A program made the translations under genes and the position numbers. The notes beneath the pieces were generated by a model. It worked only from the letters and a program-made list of their open reading frames with translations. It did no database searches and was not told where the DNA came from. DNA of 64,000 nucleotides from positions 2,208,001 through 2,272,000 of the forward strand of contig CAWETU010000001.1 in assembly GCA_963812135.1 (NCBI GenBank), given 5' to 3'. The DNA is from Vulcanimicrobiota bacterium. Lineage in GTDB: Bacteria > Vulcanimicrobiota > Vulcanimicrobiia > Eremiobacterales > Eremiobacteraceae. Below are positions 2,809-53,026 of this stretch, piece after piece; the first letter of the stretch is position 1, and every line of letters begins with the position of its first letter.

Positions 2809-3015
2809 GTGATGTGGATCTGGAACGGGTTGAAAGAAGTCTACGGACTGTTCGTCGACGACGGTCTGTTGTCGCTGGCGATCTGCCTTTGGCTGCTCGT
2901 CGTGTGGTTCGCACTTCCACACGTGCTCCCGGATCCGAGCGTACGGCCGATCGTCATGTTCGCCGGCCTTGCGGTCTTGTTGCTCGATAGCGTGCGCCGA
3001 GGTGCTCGTGCCTAA
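2809..3015 (+). CDS. Small membrane protein
   Basis: 68 aa, GLFVDDG motif plus two hydrophobic segments; tightly coupled to neighbours. Confidence 0.6.
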   Translation: MMWIWNGLKEVYGLFVDDGLLSLAICLWLLVVWFALPHVLPDPSVRPIVMFAGLAVLLLDSVRRGARA

Positions 3016-3631
3016 GGCCAAGCGCGCGACGGCGACCCCCAAGCGTTGTCCGTGGGCTGCGCGCGAGCCCGAGACACAGTATCACGATGAGGAATGGGGC
3101 ATTCCCGTCCACGACGACCGGGTGATGTTCGAATTCATCACGCTCGAAGGCGCGCAAGCGGGGCTGAGCTGGGAGACGATCCTGCGCAAGCGCGCGAACT
3201 ATCGTGAGGCCTTTGACGGATTCGACCCCGCGCGCGTGGCGCGCTTTAACGCCGCGCGCGTCAAGAAGCTGATGAACGATCCGGGAATCGTGCGCAACCG
3301 ATTGAAGATCGCCTCAACGATCGCGAACGCCAAGGCGTTTCTGGCGATCCAACGCGAGTTCGGCAGCTTCGATAAGTATGTATGGAAGTTCGTCGATGGA
3401 GCGCCGATCGACGGCAGACGGCGCCGGATGTCCGACCTTCCGGCGGCGACGAAGCAAGCGGACGCGCTGAGCAAAGACCTGCGTACGCGCGGTTTCCGCT
3501 TCGTGGGCCCGACCATAACGTATTCGTTCATGCAAGCGGTCGGCCTAGTGAACGACCACTTGCTCGACTGTCCTTGGCACGACACAGGTAGGTCGAAACG
3601 CGCGCGCGAAAGGCGCGCGACATCCCGATAA
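3008..3631 (+). CDS. tag: DNA-3-methyladenine glycosylase I
   Basis: RCPW..YHDEEWG, LEGAQAGLSWETIL, IVRNRLKI, FRFVGPTI, NDHLLDC. Confidence 0.95.
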   Translation: MPKAKRATATPKRCPWAAREPETQYHDEEWGIPVHDDRVMFEFITLEGAQAGLSWETILRKRANYREAFDGFDPARVARFNAARVKKLMNDPGIVRNRLKIASTIANAKAFLAIQREFGSFDKYVWKFVDGAPIDGRRRRMSDLPAATKQADALSKDLRTRGFRFVGPTITYSFMQAVGLVNDHLLDCPWHDTGRSKRARERRATSR

Positions 3632-48795: not shown

Positions 48796-48812
48796 GGGCG
48801 TCGAGAAAATGC

Positions 48813-48843
48813 GAGAGCCGGCTGCGTGATGCAGCCGGCTCTC
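48813..48843. terminator. Hairpin terminator between convergent genes
   Basis: GAGAGCCGGCTGC-GTGAT-GCAGCCGGCTCTC, 13-bp stem. Confidence 0.7.
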
Positions 48844-48869
48844 AAGTATTTTATGTATGGATTACGTGG

Positions 48870-49019
48870 TTAGGGAAGCGCGTTGATCTCCGGTCGCTCG
48901 AAGACAAGCTTGGTCATCGAGACGATCGCGATGTAGTACGCGTGCATTTCGGCCCGCGTGAGCCGCTGCGTCGCGGCCGTTTGGCGTAGGTTCCCTTGGG
49001 TCAGGATCTGCTTTTTCAT
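48870..49019 (-). CDS. 49-aa small ORF MKKQILTQGNLRQTAATQRLTRAEMHAYYIAIVSMTKLVFERPEINALP
   Basis: GGAGGT RBS, upstream TTGCTC-N17-TAGAGT, downstream hairpin. Confidence 0.6.
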   Translation of the reverse strand: MKKQILTQGNLRQTAATQRLTRAEMHAYYIAIVSMTKLVFERPEINALP

Positions 49020-49117
49020 TGCCGCCACCTCCGTGGCCGTCATACTCTATATCGGTAAAACTAAGCGAGCAAGCACAACGTTACGGCTGCGCTGATGAAA
49101 GCCGCATTAGAGTCAGG

Positions 49118-49173
49118 AAAAAGAAAGAACCAGCGCTTTTACGCTGGTTCTGGTGCGGGTGCAGACCTGTCAC
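49118..49173 (-). ncRNA. Putative antisense sRNA, module 1
   Basis: TATAAT at 49184-49179; 24 nt complementary to 49293-49316; terminator AGAACCAGCG-TAAAAG-CGCTGGTTCT-TTCTTTTT. Confidence 0.65.
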
Positions 49174-49258
49174 TTATGATTATACCGTCTCCTTCGTAGA
49201 GGATCGCAAGGGGCCGGCGTCAGACCTGTGCCGCCGCCCCCTTCCGCATAGCGGAGGC

Positions 49259-49326
49259 TGGAGGCGTCGGGAATCGAACCCGAATGCACGACGTGACAGG
49301 TCCGCACCCGCACCAGCGGCGCCCCC
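49259..49326 (-). ncRNA. tRNA-like RNA, module 1 (GUC loop, G3:U70, A73)
   Basis: GGGGGCG/CGCCTCC-A acceptor, CCGC-TGGT-GCGG mini D arm, loop CTGTCAC, TCGGG-TTCGATT-CCCGA T arm; 68 nt. Confidence 0.75.
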
Positions 49327-49443
49327 AACCGCGTTAGATATCACGACGGCACCCGCAACGTCAAGAAGCGTGGCGGATCTGGCGACTCGCGTTTTCATTT
49401 TGCTTTCACGCGAAGGCTGGCTTGGGTTGCTATCCTTGGTGCT

Positions 49444-50775
49444 GTGAAGCTCCTGAGAAATTCTGCCCTCGCGTTGCTGGCTTTCGTGGTCCTTGCAGGT
49501 TGCGCCGGCGGTGGCGGCGCCGGCCTTCCACCGCCCGGCCCGACCCCGACGCCTCCGGCTGCGTCAAAAATCAAATACGTCATCATCATTTTCCAAGAGA
49601 ACCGCACGCCGGACAACCTGTTCCACGGTCTGCCGGGTGCCGACATCGCGAACAGCGGCACGAATTCGATGGGCCAAGTCGTGCCGCTCATCCCTGTGGA
49701 CATCACCGCACCGTACGATCTGGACCATAGCCATAAGGGTTTTACGACCGAATACAACGGCGGCGCGATGAACGGCTGGGATCTGGTCGGCGTGAATTGT
49801 CCAAGCCACGCTTGCAATCCGCAAACCGCGTTTGGTTACGTGCCGCAGGCCGAAGTGCAACCGTACTTCACGATGGCTGAGCGCTTCACGTTCGCCGACC
49901 GGATGTTCCAGACCAATCAGGGCCCGAGCTTCCCCGCGCACCAGTTCATCATCTCGGGTACGTCGACCGATTCGGTGGGCAGCACGCTGCTGGCCGCCGA
50001 GAACCCGAACTACTTCGCCAATAACAAGCTCGATTGCGACGGCTCGACCCAGTCGCTGGTGAAGATGATCGATCCGTCGGGCAGCGAGGCGACGTCATTG
50101 CGGCCCTGCTTCGATCACCCGACGCTGTTCGACTCGCTCGATGCCAAGGGTATCACCTGGCGTTACTACGATTCGTTCAACGGCGGCCTGTGGTCCGCGC
50201 CAGACGCGATCGCGCACATCCGCAACGGCACCGACTGGAACAACGTCAGCCTGCCGAGCTCCAATATCCTGACCGACATCTCGAGCGGGCAGCTGCGCCA
50301 GGTCTCGTGGGTCATCCCGTCAGCCGCCGCTTCCGACCACGCGCTCTCAACCGATGGCAGCGGACCGGCGTGGGTGGCGTCGGTCGTCAACGCGGTCGGC
50401 CAAAGCCAGTACTGGTCTAACACCGCGATCTTCATCACGTGGGATGACTGGGGAGGTTGGTTCGACCACGTCCAGCCGCAGATGTTCAATTCATACGAGT
50501 TGAGTTTCCGGGTCCCGTTGATCGTGGTGTCGCCCTACGCGAAGCCTGCGTACGTGTCGCACGTGCAGCACGAGTACGGCAGCATCCTGAAATACGTCGA
50601 AGAGACGTATGGCCTGCCGTCGCTCGGCTACACGGATGCGCGCGCGGACGATCTTTCGGATTGCTTCAACTACAGCCAAACGCCGATCGTCTTCCAAATG
50701 ATCCCGGCGGACCGCAAGGCGGCGGACTTCATCCGCGCGCCGATGGTCAACGTGCCGCCCGACGACGATTTTTAG
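49444..50775 (+). CDS. Phospholipase C/phosphoesterase family lipoprotein
   Basis: LAGC lipobox, IIIFQENRTPDNLF, GPSFPAH, ITWDDWGGWFDHV, FRVPLIVVSPY. Confidence 0.9.
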   Translation: MKLLRNSALALLAFVVLAGCAGGGGAGLPPPGPTPTPPAASKIKYVIIIFQENRTPDNLFHGLPGADIANSGTNSMGQVVPLIPVDITAPYDLDHSHKGFTTEYNGGAMNGWDLVGVNCPSHACNPQTAFGYVPQAEVQPYFTMAERFTFADRMFQTNQGPSFPAHQFIISGTSTDSVGSTLLAAENPNYFANNKLDCDGSTQSLVKMIDPSGSEATSLRPCFDHPTLFDSLDAKGITWRYYDSFNGGLWSAPDAIAHIRNGTDWNNVSLPSSNILTDISSGQLRQVSWVIPSAAASDHALSTDGSGPAWVASVVNAVGQSQYWSNTAIFITWDDWGGWFDHVQPQMFNSYELSFRVPLIVVSPYAKPAYVSHVQHEYGSILKYVEETYGLPSLGYTDARADDLSDCFNYSQTPIVFQMIPADRKAADFIRAPMVNVPPDDDF

Positions 50776-50798
50776 GGTCGAATGAATTCGACCGCTAC
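50775..50798 (-). repeat. GTAG-type REP copy 5
   Basis: GGGTCGAATGAATTCGACCGCTAC. Confidence 0.85.
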
Positions 50799-50799
50799 A

Positions 50800-51273
50800 T
50801 CAGGCCTTGTCGTAGGCCTCTTGCAGGCCCTTGATGTCGATCTTGTTCATTTCGAGCATGGCTTTCATAACCGCGCTCGATTTTTTTTCGTCGTCGTCTC
50901 CCATAAGTTCGCCCAACGCCGACGGGATGATCTGCCACGACAGGCCGAATTTGTCGGTCAGCCAGCCGCACTGACTCTTCTTGCCGCCCTCGGACAGCCG
51001 CTCCCACAAGTCATCCACCTCTGTCTGTGTCTTGCAGTCGACGAAGAACGAGAAGGCCGGCGTCAACTGGAAGTGCGGCCCGCCGTTGAGCGCCATGATT
51101 TCTTGACCCTCGAGCTCGAAGGTCACGAACATCACAGATCCTTCCGAGCCAGGCCCTTCGTTACCGTGGCGCGAGACGTTCAGGATCTTCGAGTTCTTGA
51201 AGATCGACGTGTAGAATTTCGCCGCTTCTTCTGCTTTGTCGTCGAACCATAAGAACGGTCTGATCTTTTTCAC
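50800..51273 (-). CDS. VOC/PhnB-like (3-demethylubiquinone-9 3-methyltransferase family) protein
   Basis: KIRPFLWFDDKAEEAA..ALNGGP..CGWLTDKFGLSWQI; own RBS (AAGGA) and GTG. Confidence 0.88.
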   Translation of the reverse strand: MKKIRPFLWFDDKAEEAAKFYTSIFKNSKILNVSRHGNEGPGSEGSVMFVTFELEGQEIMALNGGPHFQLTPAFSFFVDCKTQTEVDDLWERLSEGGKKSQCGWLTDKFGLSWQIIPSALGELMGDDDEKKSSAVMKAMLEMNKIDIKGLQEAYDKA

Positions 51274-51301
51274 GGATGTGTCCTTTGCTTTTACGCTGGT
51301 G

Positions 51302-51771
51302 TTAGAGTGTTGGCAGCAGTTCCGCGAGACGTCGAGCTGCTGGTTCCAGCCCTCGCTCATCCCTTCGAGCATGTAGGCCGCTTCCGGCGCAGCCTTGACC
51401 GGGGTTGCCTGCATCGAAATCTTGGTCTTACCGTTTTGATCGGTGAACGTGACGGTGCTGAGCACTTCGAGCACGACGTTGCCCTTGTCGTCCTCGACGA
51501 AGTGGGTCATGACGAGCCGTTCAGGCTCGACGACTTCGTGATACACGCCGTGCATCGGATAGATCGTGCCTTCGGGACCCCGCATGTGGATGCGAAGCTT
51601 GCCGCCCTTGCGCGCATCCGACTCGACGAGCGGCGCCGTGAAATGCTTGGGACCCCACCAGCGCGTCATCATCTTCGGATCGGTCCATGCTTTGAACACG
51701 AGACTGCGCGGCGCGTCGAACACGCGCGTGATCGTCAAGGTTGCCGCGGCCGGGCTATTTTTTGCGTCCAC
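51302..51771 (-). CDS. SRPBCC/Aha1-like protein (1-nt deletion near 3' end)
   Basis: ITRVFDAPRSLVFKAWTDP..WWGP..GWNQQLD(R)LAELL*. Confidence 0.85.
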
Positions 51772-52105
51772 GTTTCTTCTCTTTCCCCTGGAGCTCGATG
51801 AGGTAATCGTCGAGTCTCTCGAAGCTTTGGTCCCAAAAACGCCGATAGCGCTCCATCCACTGCGCCACTTCTTTCAGCGGCGCGGCATCGAGCTTGCGAG
51901 GGCGCCGCTGCGCATCGCGGCTACGGGTGACGAGGCCGGCGCGCTCCAGCACCTTGAGGTGCTTGGAAATGGCCGGCAGCGTCATGTCGAATGGTCGCGC
52001 CAACTCGGTCACCGATCGTTGACCCGAGGCGAGCCGCGCGAGGATGGCGCGCCGGGTGGGGTCGGCGAGCGCCGCAAGGGTGTTGCTGAGGCGGTCGGCT
52101 GTCAT
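51755..52105 (-). CDS. ArsR/SmtB family regulator
   Basis: ALADPTRRAIL..AISKHLKVLERAGLV..FWDQSFERLDDYL. Confidence 0.92.
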   Translation of the reverse strand: MTADRLSNTLAALADPTRRAILARLASGQRSVTELARPFDMTLPAISKHLKVLERAGLVTRSRDAQRRPRKLDAAPLKEVAQWMERYRRFWDQSFERLDDYLIELQGKEKKRGRKK

Positions 52106-52121
52106 TTCCTCTGTCTTTATG

Positions 52122-52177
52122 AACCTGTTGGTTATGTAACCTTTTGGTATATTACACCTGGACGATCGGGCTGTCAA
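52122..52177 (-). promoter_or_regulatory. Sigma70 promoter with two ArsR-type operator boxes
   Basis: TTGACA(52177-72)-N17-TAATAT(52154-49); AACCTGTTGGTT 52122-33 and AACCTTTTGGTA 52138-49. Confidence 0.75.
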
Positions 52178-52237
52178 GCGCGGAAGCCCCAAAATTGTGA
52201 CGGCTGTCCAGCCGGCTATTTGGGTATTATCCGTACG

Positions 52238-52732
52238 ATGAAATCCACGCGTCTTTTCTTGCCCGTCGTGCTGCTGCTGCTCATCGCGTCGCCTGCCGTC
52301 GCCGACCTCGGTATGGATCTGCGCTGCAAGACTGCGGGGACTTCGATGCAGGCGTTGACCAAGCAGTGCGGGGTCGCGGGCGGGACGATCGCGGGCGCTG
52401 ATGCCCGGCTGTGCGTCGAGGCGCATGCGTCTGAGCTTGCACAAACAGCGTCGGTGTGCGTCTACGCGGCGCAAAATCACTATGCCGCGGCCCACGATCT
52501 TTCGGGCTACGATGCGGATCGCGAGCTCATCGGCGGCGCGACGTTCTTGGGCATCGCCGCAGAGGCCAACGTCTACCTCGAGCGGCGCGACCTCGCAACC
52601 GCGCAGCTTAAGTCTGTCATCACAATGGCGACGCAAGTGGCGTCCGATCCCCTTGCCGCCAACCTCACAGGCATGGCGTATAGCGAGCAGGCGGTCGCAA
52701 ATAGCTTGTTGCATTCGCTTGCCGCGAGATAA
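52238..52732 (+). CDS. Secreted helical hypothetical protein
   Basis: Signal peptide ending AVA; 4 Cys. Confidence 0.6.
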   Translation: MKSTRLFLPVVLLLLIASPAVADLGMDLRCKTAGTSMQALTKQCGVAGGTIAGADARLCVEAHASELAQTASVCVYAAQNHYAAAHDLSGYDADRELIGGATFLGIAAEANVYLERRDLATAQLKSVITMATQVASDPLAANLTGMAYSEQAVANSLLHSLAAR

Positions 52733-52762
52733 ATGTGATCAGGGCTGAAGTCTCGCGCATTT

Positions 52763-52819
52763 GAAAACAGGTCGACCGCGCCTTTCAGCGCGGTCGATTG
52801 CTAACACTGGACCGTCACC
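52763..52819 (-). ncRNA. Putative antisense sRNA, module 2
   Basis: TTGCAG-N17-TATAAT (52852-52824); 19 nt complementary to 52943-52961; hairpin TCGACCGCGC-TGAAAG-GCGCGGTCGA then CCTGTTTT. Confidence 0.65.
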
Positions 52820-52906
52820 TTAAATTATACCGATTCCTGAAGCGAGCTGCAAGTGGGCAGCGTCTGGTCCGTGGTCGCTGCCCGCTCTCCGCTTTGTATC
52901 GGAGGC

Positions 52907-52974
52907 TGGAGGCAGCGGGACTCGAACCCGCGACACGCGGCTTGACGGTCCAGTGCCGGCACCTGCCCACCCCC
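52907..52974 (-). ncRNA. tRNA-like RNA, module 2 (GUC loop, G3:U70, A73)
   Basis: GGGGGTG/TGCCTCC-A acceptor, GGC-AGGT-GCC mini D arm, loop CCGTCAA, GCGGG-TTCGAGT-CCCGC T arm; 68 nt. Confidence 0.75.
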
Positions 52975-53026
52975 AACCAACCGCCCCTATCACTGAAAGC
53001 GCTCTGGCCGTAAAGGTCTTGGGGCG

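Follow-up and report, generated by a model that had tools for sequence, protein, structure and literature searches.

Two units of a tRNA-shaped RNA and a predicted complementary small RNA in a Vulcanimicrobiota genome: a class-wide family with candidate toxin-antitoxin-like logic

The window analysed here is a stretch of 64,000 nucleotides (nt) from a Vulcanimicrobiota bacterium of the Eremiobacteraceae (assembly GCA_963812135.1, contig CAWETU010000001.1, positions 2,208,001 to 2,272,000), and it carries two minus-strand units, at 49330-49118 and 52978-52764, that show an identical order of parts and a mean column identity of 78% when aligned. Each unit consists of five parts, namely a weak promoter-like site (P1), a cloverleaf of 68-72 nt, a predicted sigma-70 promoter (P2), a segment complementary to the cloverleaf, and a terminal hairpin. 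An earlier interpretation made from the DNA letters (the sequence-only reading) had proposed a module in which a tRNA-like RNA is countered by its own promoter-driven antisense RNA, and re-reading the minus strand bore out its claim that both units contain the same parts in the same order.

In the direction of transcription, copy 1 starts with P1 (49364-49336), a combination of TTGACG (49364-49359) and GTGATATCT (49344-49336) that a generic promoter scan does not list. The leader GGTT (49330-49327) and the 68-nt alanine-type cloverleaf (49326-49259) follow, the latter recognizable by the covariation of its arms, by G3:U70 and by A73, and then come a small hairpin (49255-49243) and a GC hairpin (49242-49209), both seen in the fold. 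The GC-hairpin loop (49229-49221) can pair with the anticodon-like arm, and this pairing also covaries in the family. P2 (49209-49179) comprises TTGCGA (49209-49204), a spacer of 19 nt that is exceptional in the family pattern, and TATAAT (49184-49179), and it precedes a predicted small RNA (sRNA) of about 55 nt (49173-49118) made up of the complement (49173-49150) and a terminator (49151-49118). In copy 2, P1 (53014-52985) is a weak match composed of TTTACG (53014-53009) and GTGATAGGG (52993-52985), likewise unlisted, and the corresponding parts are the leader GGTT (52978-52975), the 68-nt alanine-type cloverleaf (52974-52907; covariation, G3:U70 and A73), the small hairpin (52904-52887), the GC hairpin (52885-52853) with a loop segment (52872-52864) that is complementary to the arm with one mismatch, P2 (52852-52824) with TTGCAG (52852-52847), a 17-nt spacer conforming to the family pattern and TATAAT (52829-52824), and a predicted sRNA of about 54 nt (52819-52764) with complement (52819-52799) and terminator (52797-52764). 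Both predicted sRNAs are indicated by the pairing, by cofolding and by a generic terminator scan of the window, which independently lists the intrinsic terminators at 49151-49126 and 52797-52772. The hexamers named in the sequence-only reading are present, and its pairing counts are exact: the copy 1 arm (49293-49316) pairs with the downstream segment (49150-49173) through 23 Watson-Crick (WC) pairs and one G-U pair of 24, and the copy 2 arm (52943-52961) with its segment (52799-52817) through 16 WC pairs, two G-U pairs and one mismatch of 19. Minimum free energy (MFE) folds of both units use this long-range helix (z = -6.20 and -4.93; none of 200 shuffles was as good in either case), and it also appears in the centroid folds of both units and in the consensus fold.

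A covariance model built from 12 units (R1) was used to search the genome as well as samples of its taxonomic family, class and phylum. In this genome, BLAST and R1 recovered the two copies only (111.1 and 103.3 bits, with the next match at 25.1 bits), and BLAST of both units against the genome gave no further extended match. The two copies nevertheless belong to a class-wide family: R1 matched 23 of 32 genomes of the same taxonomic family at E <= 0.001, the weakest of these matches being ordinary tRNAs, and 58 of 151 genomes of the class sample at E <= 1e-6 (f1, 14 of 31; f2, 43 of 116; f3, 0 of 3). Matches in the phylum sample outside the class (3 of 19 genomes, f6) proved to be genuine tRNA-Asp genes and hence false positives of R1. 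The family, class and phylum tallies include two unpublished genomes (G010 and G129), on which no sequence-level statement rests. With one genome counted per species, the family pattern was found in at least 122 stretches, and among the pattern matches listed, 66 of 80 carried titles of the Candidatus Eremiobacteraeota, Vulcanimicrobiota, WPS-2, Baltobacteraceae, Cybelea or Elarobacter type. Six records with other phylum labels contain typical modules at the same syntenic site, which we take as labelling or binning differences rather than as spread, and the pattern had no match among viral contigs. Some units stand alone and others form tandem arrays, such as a group of four within about 1.1 kb in one locus (L113), and sRNA matches per genome vary from 0 to 9 in the class sample. 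For the anatomy, 89 units were collected, 83 of them with an intact cloverleaf, and two types can be distinguished. Type 1, the type of the window, has the cloverleaf, small hairpin, GC hairpin, promoter, complement and terminator, whereas type 2, which is the type of family f2 and also of the modules in the six differently labelled records, is without the GC hairpin; its D-like segment is constant, and the sequence of its 3' hairpin is conserved.

The evidence for the structure of the units comes from covariation, which was counted in alignments of 12 type 1 units (A2) and 39 type 2 units (A4); a 23-unit type 1 alignment (A5) was left out of the counts, as it is misaligned in the sRNA region. 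The type 1 cloverleaf is paired in 99.2% of the cells, with double changes in 12 of 20 pairs and none of 500 shuffles scoring as high, and its mini D arm is 100% paired with two of three pairs covarying. The long helix between the arm and the post-promoter segment is paired in 98.0% of the cells with 11 of 21 covarying pairs, and this value drops to 31-38% when the strands are slid by 1-3 columns. In type 2 units, the cloverleaf is 94.4% paired (seven of eight arm pairs covary) and the long pairing 87.3% (11 of 15 pairs of the variable helix covary); slid controls across all covariation tests gave 17-72%. The covarying pairs of the type 2 variable helix include loop nucleotides that are partnerless in the cloverleaf, and the type 2 duplex extends from the loop to acceptor nucleotide 4, a bulged helix of about 34 base pairs (bp). 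The 5' strand of the arm thus covaries with two mutually exclusive partners, which indicates two alternative selected states. What the sequence-only reading had noticed between two copies, a pairing kept while its sequence changes, therefore holds throughout the family, and the 68-nt domains are in all probability real tRNA-shaped RNAs, as judged by the covariation of all four arms.

The pairing strands can also be viewed as DNA, since inverted repeats of 19-24 bp surround a promoter-bearing segment of about 120 bp, and such repeats could flank an invertible promoter or represent the ends of a small mobile element. We regard this as extremely improbable. In per-unit alignments of 79 units, transition mismatches were G-U in 69 cases versus A-C in 32, and 31 versus five in the units that a script with imprecise type labels assigned to type 1; this excess of G-U over A-C on the transcribed strand argues for RNA-level pairing. 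Moreover, the repeat arm also covaries with its local hairpin partner, the promoter faces nothing but a terminator, no recombinase was found next to the units among 144 neighbours, and there are merely two copies in the genome.

Pairing also appears to be specific within each unit. In cofolding, the own sRNA was the best predicted partner in all ten rows, with a change in free energy (ddG) for the copy 1 cloverleaf of -20.7 kcal/mol with its own sRNA and +1.7 with that of copy 2, and for the copy 2 cloverleaf of -14.7 kcal/mol with its own sRNA and -6.1 with that of copy 1. Together with the covariation that includes loop nucleotides, this agrees with the cognate pairing proposed before, and specific RNA-RNA pairing of the antitoxin type is a prediction of these models. 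Two other measures were less suitable. RNAduplex energies over long flanks were too noisy to tell cognate from non-cognate pairs, and a longest gapless helix of at least 14 was obtained in 67 of 85 units for the cognate and in 201 of 1020 comparisons for non-cognate partners, a poor measure, given the constant segment common to type 2 units and the bulges in their duplexes. A third partner of the arm is found in type 1 units only: the GC-hairpin loop (49229-49221 and 52872-52864, minus strand) duplicates the beginning of the sRNA seed, and in A2 it is paired with the same arm in 88.0% of the cells, with double changes in four of nine pairs. The loop can therefore pair with the arm in cis and could mask the precursor.

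The cloverleaf carries the marks of an alanine tRNA. A 7-bp acceptor stem is found in 77 of 89 units and a stem of at least 6 bp in 82, G3:U70 is present in 85 (the four exceptions are degenerate copies), A73 is present in all 89, and the T-loop is canonical; the mini D-loop contains GG, and copy 1 has exactly the acceptor stem of the transfer-messenger RNA (tmRNA) of the same genome. RNase P prefers U at position -1, and the leader has T at this position in 79 of 83 units, as well as G at -3 in 82 of 83. A73 is followed by GCC in 61 of the 89 units and by CCA in none, which is not disqualifying, since CCA is encoded in four and absent from six of ten genuine RNA genes inspected in the own genome. 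From G3:U70 and A73 we would predict that the cloverleaf is charged with alanine. The lower half is less regular, with a D stem of 3-4 bp and a loop of 4-5 nt, a bulged anticodon-like arm of 7-8 bp, in whose 7-nt loop the U33 position is usually occupied by U, and 0-2 nt before the T stem. Tools for known RNAs gave nothing in the window at their standard settings: ARAGORN called no tRNA there by default (and four of the 89 units), and no Rfam family matched at gathering thresholds. With relaxed scoring, ARAGORN made 81 calls in the 89 units, including Ile(GAU) 30 times, Val(GAC) 11 times and Asp(GUC) eight times. The best sub-threshold Rfam matches were tmRNA (27.5 bits) and permuted tmRNA (29.3 bits; threshold 47), and tRNA for copy 2 (18.6 bits; threshold 29); the tRNA threshold (RF00005) was reached by one of 20 units.

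Two further observations concern tRNA-like sequences. The copy 1 loop (49297-49291) is identical to the anticodon loop of the own tRNA-Asp(GUC) (G000:C1:1291033-1291109), so that the predicted copy 1 sRNA starts with 8 nt complementary to a genuine tRNA. A contig labelled Planctomycetaceae contains a G3:U70-type tRNA-like sequence (L203:251-480) that is missed by ARAGORN. A terminator and a repeat of the arm segment, direct rather than inverted, come after it, and there is no internal promoter; this sequence is a different thing, possibly an integration scar.

Between the cloverleaf and its complement, 81 of 89 units contain the pattern TTGNNN-N16-18-TANNNT. The P2 spacer is 17 nt long in 72 units and a TG precedes the -10 hexamer in 60, and the eight exceptions to the pattern are copy 1 with its 19-nt spacer, five units that can be read as having an extended -10 without a well-spaced -35, and two degenerate units. 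As only the hexamer positions are fixed and the spacer sequence varies, the conservation is that of a DNA signal and not of an RNA structure. In copy 1, the complement begins 5 nt past the -10 hexamer, so that a P2 transcript would begin with the sequence that pairs to the anticodon-like loop. P1 appears from its sequence to be weaker than P2: in 65 of 83 units, G[TG]GA stands 16-18 nt upstream of G1, and a TTG-type -35 is seen in about a third. A side observation concerns the 3' end of type 2 sRNAs, where an 11-bp GC stem with the loop AGUAAU or AGCAAU is conserved in sequence (A7 columns 79-106, for example in the region L108:1675-1695) and is often followed by a poor U-run; beyond termination, this hairpin may serve, for example, in protein binding or stabilization.

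A new observation that goes beyond the sequence-only reading is that the sRNA gene survives without the cloverleaf. A second model (R2), covering promoter, sRNA and hairpin of type 2, matched 69 of 151 class genomes at E <= 1e-4, and 30 R2 loci contained 42 strong sRNA matches (at least 75 bits), 14 of which were without an intact upstream cloverleaf, whereas all 27 cloverleaf matches (at least 30 bits) in these loci adjoined an sRNA match. With 14 of 42 sRNA genes orphaned and no orphan cloverleaf, the sRNA outlives the cloverleaf and never the reverse. The lost cloverleaves had been deleted, cut after the first arm, reduced to the last ~15 nt or replaced by a repeat element, and the orphan genes keep P2, seed and hairpin intact, persist without P1, and score like paired ones (84-105 bits). 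The cloverleaf is broken in six of the 89 R1 units; five of these keep the complement, one of them (L092) with a decayed promoter, and one (L069) is without the sRNA part, too. Conversely, a local complement with at least 10 WC pairs accompanies each of the 79 intact units examined, out of 83. In four type 2 loci (L285, ~2999-3100; L309, ~1330-1500; L312, ~1400-1500; L313, ~1330-1500), the cloverleaf is replaced or split by a short repeat ending in CTGAGCTTGTCGAAGG, copies of which are sometimes in tandem; it looks like an element of the repetitive extragenic palindrome or miniature inverted-repeat transposable element type that inserts at or deletes the tRNA-like gene.

These data bear on two other explanations. 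In the first, P1 transcribes the whole unit of about 215 nt as one RNA, the long helix forms in cis, as a single structure or as a two-fold switch, and P2 is secondary. The long helix in the MFE, centroid and consensus folds would fit this view, as would the lack of a terminator between cloverleaf and P2, but P2 is conserved in the fashion of a promoter, sRNA genes with P2 persist without P1 and cloverleaf, and the cloverleaf arm that competes with the long helix covaries as well. We consider the single long RNA quite unlikely. The promoter pattern and the orphan genes are instead consistent with the short RNA having a promoter of its own, as had been proposed. The second explanation makes the sRNA the main effector, with targets elsewhere, and the cloverleaf its cis-encoded sponge or decoy. 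That orphan genes score as high as paired ones, that the type 2 3' hairpin is conserved in sequence, and that the copy 1 sRNA could pair with the anticodon loop of the own tRNA-Asp through its first 8 nt all speak for it; yet the seeds differ between paralogues and covary with their own cloverleaf, BLAST of both units gave no other extended match in the genome, and a sponge would have no need of G3:U70, A73 and a canonical T-loop. Such a role of the sRNA is in our view unlikely.

The genes around the units do not suggest a partner. The 144 nearest open reading frames (ORFs) on either side are varied housekeeping genes, among which no conserved protein partner was found, and units recur at syntenic sites beside a radical-SAM gene and between acyl-CoA dehydrogenase and succinyl-CoA ligase genes. 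Of the downstream neighbours with a Pfam match, 42 of 51 lie on the opposite strand, in convergent orientation. The lack of a conserved neighbour and the mostly convergent downstream genes characterize the units as stand-alone RNA genes and not as leaders, in agreement with the earlier statement that no regulated ORF follows. A cis-regulatory leader of the T-box or riboswitch type was rejected for lack of a regulated downstream gene on the same strand, copy 2 facing a convergent ORF. In phages P1 and P4, the c4 and CI RNAs control phage messenger RNAs (mRNAs) through ant/icd translation or transcription termination. By analogy, the tRNA-shaped RNA might be a regulator that pairs with the P2 transcript and alters termination or read-through into downstream genes. 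The layout, a tRNA-like antisense RNA with its target encoded downstream, is reminiscent of these systems, and in type 1 units about 3-7 nt are shared by the complement and the 5' strand of the terminator stem. In type 2 units, however, the complement stops just before the hairpin and does not overlap, the annotated downstream genes are predominantly convergent, there is no phage context, and Rfam gave weak tmRNA and tRNA matches alone, with no c4/CI family among the E-value matches. A control of downstream genes is therefore very unlikely, as is the DNA-level switch described above.

In the window itself, copy 1 is divergent from a phosphoesterase gene, and copy 2 lies after a Peptidase_S13 (PBP4-type) gene and faces the convergent ORF 52238-52732 on the plus strand. 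An ArsR gene and an AHSA1/3-dmu-9_3-mt gene are located between the copies: 50803-51771 (minus strand) is one ORF that fuses AHSA1/SRPBCC and 3-dmu-9_3-mt (PhnB-like) domains, and it stands beside the ArsR-type regulator at 51758-52105. Directly after copy 1 lies a 57-amino-acid ORF without Pfam match (48870-49043, minus strand), which is also found after the orthologous unit of a related genome (L084/L050), followed by a strong bidirectional terminator (48812-48844). Some units lie within about 100-150 nt of genuine tRNA genes, such as tRNA-Pro(GGG) upstream in L067 (1323-1399) and a tRNA gene downstream in L085. The PBP4-type neighbour had suggested that the cloverleaf might be an alanine donor for the cell wall, an idea that was dropped because the genome has no match to the FemAB family and has AlaRS (alanyl-tRNA synthetase) and SmpB as single copies.

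More generally, the cloverleaf could be a useful, non-toxic tRNA mimic, such as an alanine donor or a factor for stalled ribosomes, whose level is merely tuned by the sRNA. Conserved syntenic sites amid housekeeping genes, the strict retention of G3:U70, A73 and the T-loop, and the wide occurrence of the family in the class are what one would expect of such an RNA. On the other hand, 14 of 42 sRNA genes are retained without an intact cloverleaf, the copy number ranges from 0 to 9 sRNA matches per genome, and neither a FemAB-type transferase nor a second AlaRS or SmpB was found in the genome. We think that a beneficial mimic is rather doubtful.

The reading that we favour, tentatively and with somewhat less than even confidence, is that of a stand-alone, RNA-only gene pair with toxin-antitoxin (TA)-like logic, in which a dedicated antagonist sRNA neutralizes an alanine-type tRNA mimic. 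This logic would fit the alanine marks that are strictly kept in intact copies, the apparently stronger promoter of the antagonist, and the frequent loss of the cloverleaf only; the asymmetric decay may be seen as indirect support. We infer transcription starts, processing, charging and harmfulness in the following scheme. The weak P1 would produce a precursor whose 5' part folds into the tRNA-shaped RNA of 68-72 nt with its alanine-acceptor marks; RNase P and a 3' nuclease would trim this precursor, CCA would be added, and AlaRS could then charge the cloverleaf. The stronger sigma-70 promoter P2 would produce the sRNA of about 55 nt, the 5' end of which is the complement of the anticodon-like loop. 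The sRNA would dock on this U-turn-type loop and from there extend the pairing along the 5' side of the arm and the D-like arm, and into the acceptor stem as well in type 2 units, to give a duplex of 21-37 bp. Such a duplex would unfold the cloverleaf and block the activity of the mimic, as the D-like arm, the anticodon-like arm and part of the acceptor stem, and with them the features needed by RNase P, the CCA-adding enzyme, AlaRS and EF-Tu, would be lost; cleavage of the duplex by RNase III may follow. Free mimic would be costly, for example via AlaRS, EF-Tu, the ribosome or SmpB, and the sRNA would be its dedicated antidote.

A more far-reaching version would be that the freed, alanine-charged mimic enters translation and either inserts alanine at Asp, Ile or Val codons or jams ribosomes or SmpB like a tag-less tmRNA, that the system is an invention shared across the Eremiobacterota, and that orphan sRNAs confer immunity against paralogous or incoming copies. 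This version is possible but speculative.

Several points weigh against a toxin and its antidote. The units occupy housekeeping and syntenic sites, with one transposase among the 144 neighbours and no viral-contig match, unlike the mobile or defence setting of many TA systems, and the well-conserved orphan sRNAs could equally mean another job for the sRNA. Because of this non-mobile chromosomal context and these orphans, a tuned useful RNA, an sRNA with other targets and a single cis-folding transcript stay rivals. The non-canonical lower half of the cloverleaf, with its short D arm, bulged arm and scant variable loop, makes an engagement with the translation apparatus uncertain. The generic promoter scan of the window lists neither P2 nor P1, and the copy 1 spacer has 19 nt; the scan misses P2 because TTGCGA and TTGCAG match TTGACA at three of six positions, and the promoter argument is consequently one of family conservation only. 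Between the cloverleaf and P2 there is no terminator, so that RNA reading through from P1 could pair in cis, which is what the MFE folds show. Finally, the column alignment of type 2 units has no G-U bias (58 versus 56 A-C). The overall interpretation of the sequence-only reading is thus supported in part: the evidence favours a tRNA-shaped RNA, a short RNA with a putative promoter of its own, predicted cognate pairing and the absence of a regulated ORF, the TA function is a candidate one, and the term antisense needs qualification, as the partner is encoded downstream on the same strand and may also pair in cis within a read-through transcript.

Whatever its function, this is a widespread and strongly covarying RNA family in a poorly studied, mostly uncultured phylum, and it offers a model for how the specificity of RNA-RNA pairs diverges among paralogues within one genome. 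If our favoured reading is true, the cell uses a dedicated unfolding RNA to keep in check a tRNA look-alike that accepts alanine and could be disruptive; this would be a new kind of toxin for RNA-only TA systems, or a natural switch for mistranslation or ribosome interference, and the sRNA would be one of the rare cases in which the selected target is the body of a tRNA-shaped RNA. Should the alanine-charged mimic prove true, it would be the first RNA-only TA pair with a tRNA-mimic toxin or, equivalently, a switch for regulated mistranslation.

A full-text literature search, which did not cover subscription journals, returned no description of a tRNA-like RNA with a dedicated complementary sRNA in the text it reached. 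A comparison with the closest known systems is instructive. The tRNA-like domain of tmRNA (SsrA) resembles the cloverleaf in its G3:U70 acceptor, A73 and canonical T arm. The units, however, have no tag reading frame or pseudoknots, their match of 27.5 bits against a threshold of 47 includes a deletion of 326 positions in the alignment, a genuine single tmRNA is found elsewhere in the genome by ARAGORN, and their cloverleaf is completed by a closed anticodon-like hairpin and a mini D arm. With canonical tRNAs, and with tRNA-Ala in particular, they share the four-arm cloverleaf, the alanine identity marks and the 7-nt loop, and natural or engineered anticodon variants of tRNA-Ala are reported to mistranslate (PMC11415595; 10.1101/2022.11.23.517754). 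They differ from these in the shortened D arm, the bulged arm of 7-8 bp and the near absence of a variable loop, in being mostly missed by tRNA finders, and in that every intact copy of a unit has its own candidate antagonist RNA. With c4 and CI, the units have in common a tRNA-like RNA that is probably processed by RNase P, a complementary site downstream on the same strand and a covarying specificity; they are, however, chromosomal and control no downstream gene, and their complementary site is the predicted 5' end of an independent sRNA. Type I TA systems of the hok/Sok type use tail-to-loop pairing with a U-turn loop, and the sRNA likewise would present a single-stranded 5' tail complementary to a 7-nt target loop, with the possibility of extension. 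Here, the target is no mRNA for a toxic peptide, and the units have no conserved ORF, as their indels are not multiples of three and their spacers are variable. The closest parallel in logic are the type VIII RNA-RNA systems, such as SdsR/RyeA and CreT/CreA, which also consist of two adjacent non-coding RNA genes, one product being able to pair with and neutralize the other; there, too, the supposed antidote has the stronger promoter and orphan antidotes are common. In our units, the candidate toxin is tRNA-shaped and neither an mRNA-acting sRNA nor a mini-ORF by which a rare tRNA is sequestered, CRISPR effectors play no part, and both RNAs are encoded on the same strand. In conclusion, each of the closest known systems shares some features with these units and fails at least one of the defining features tested.

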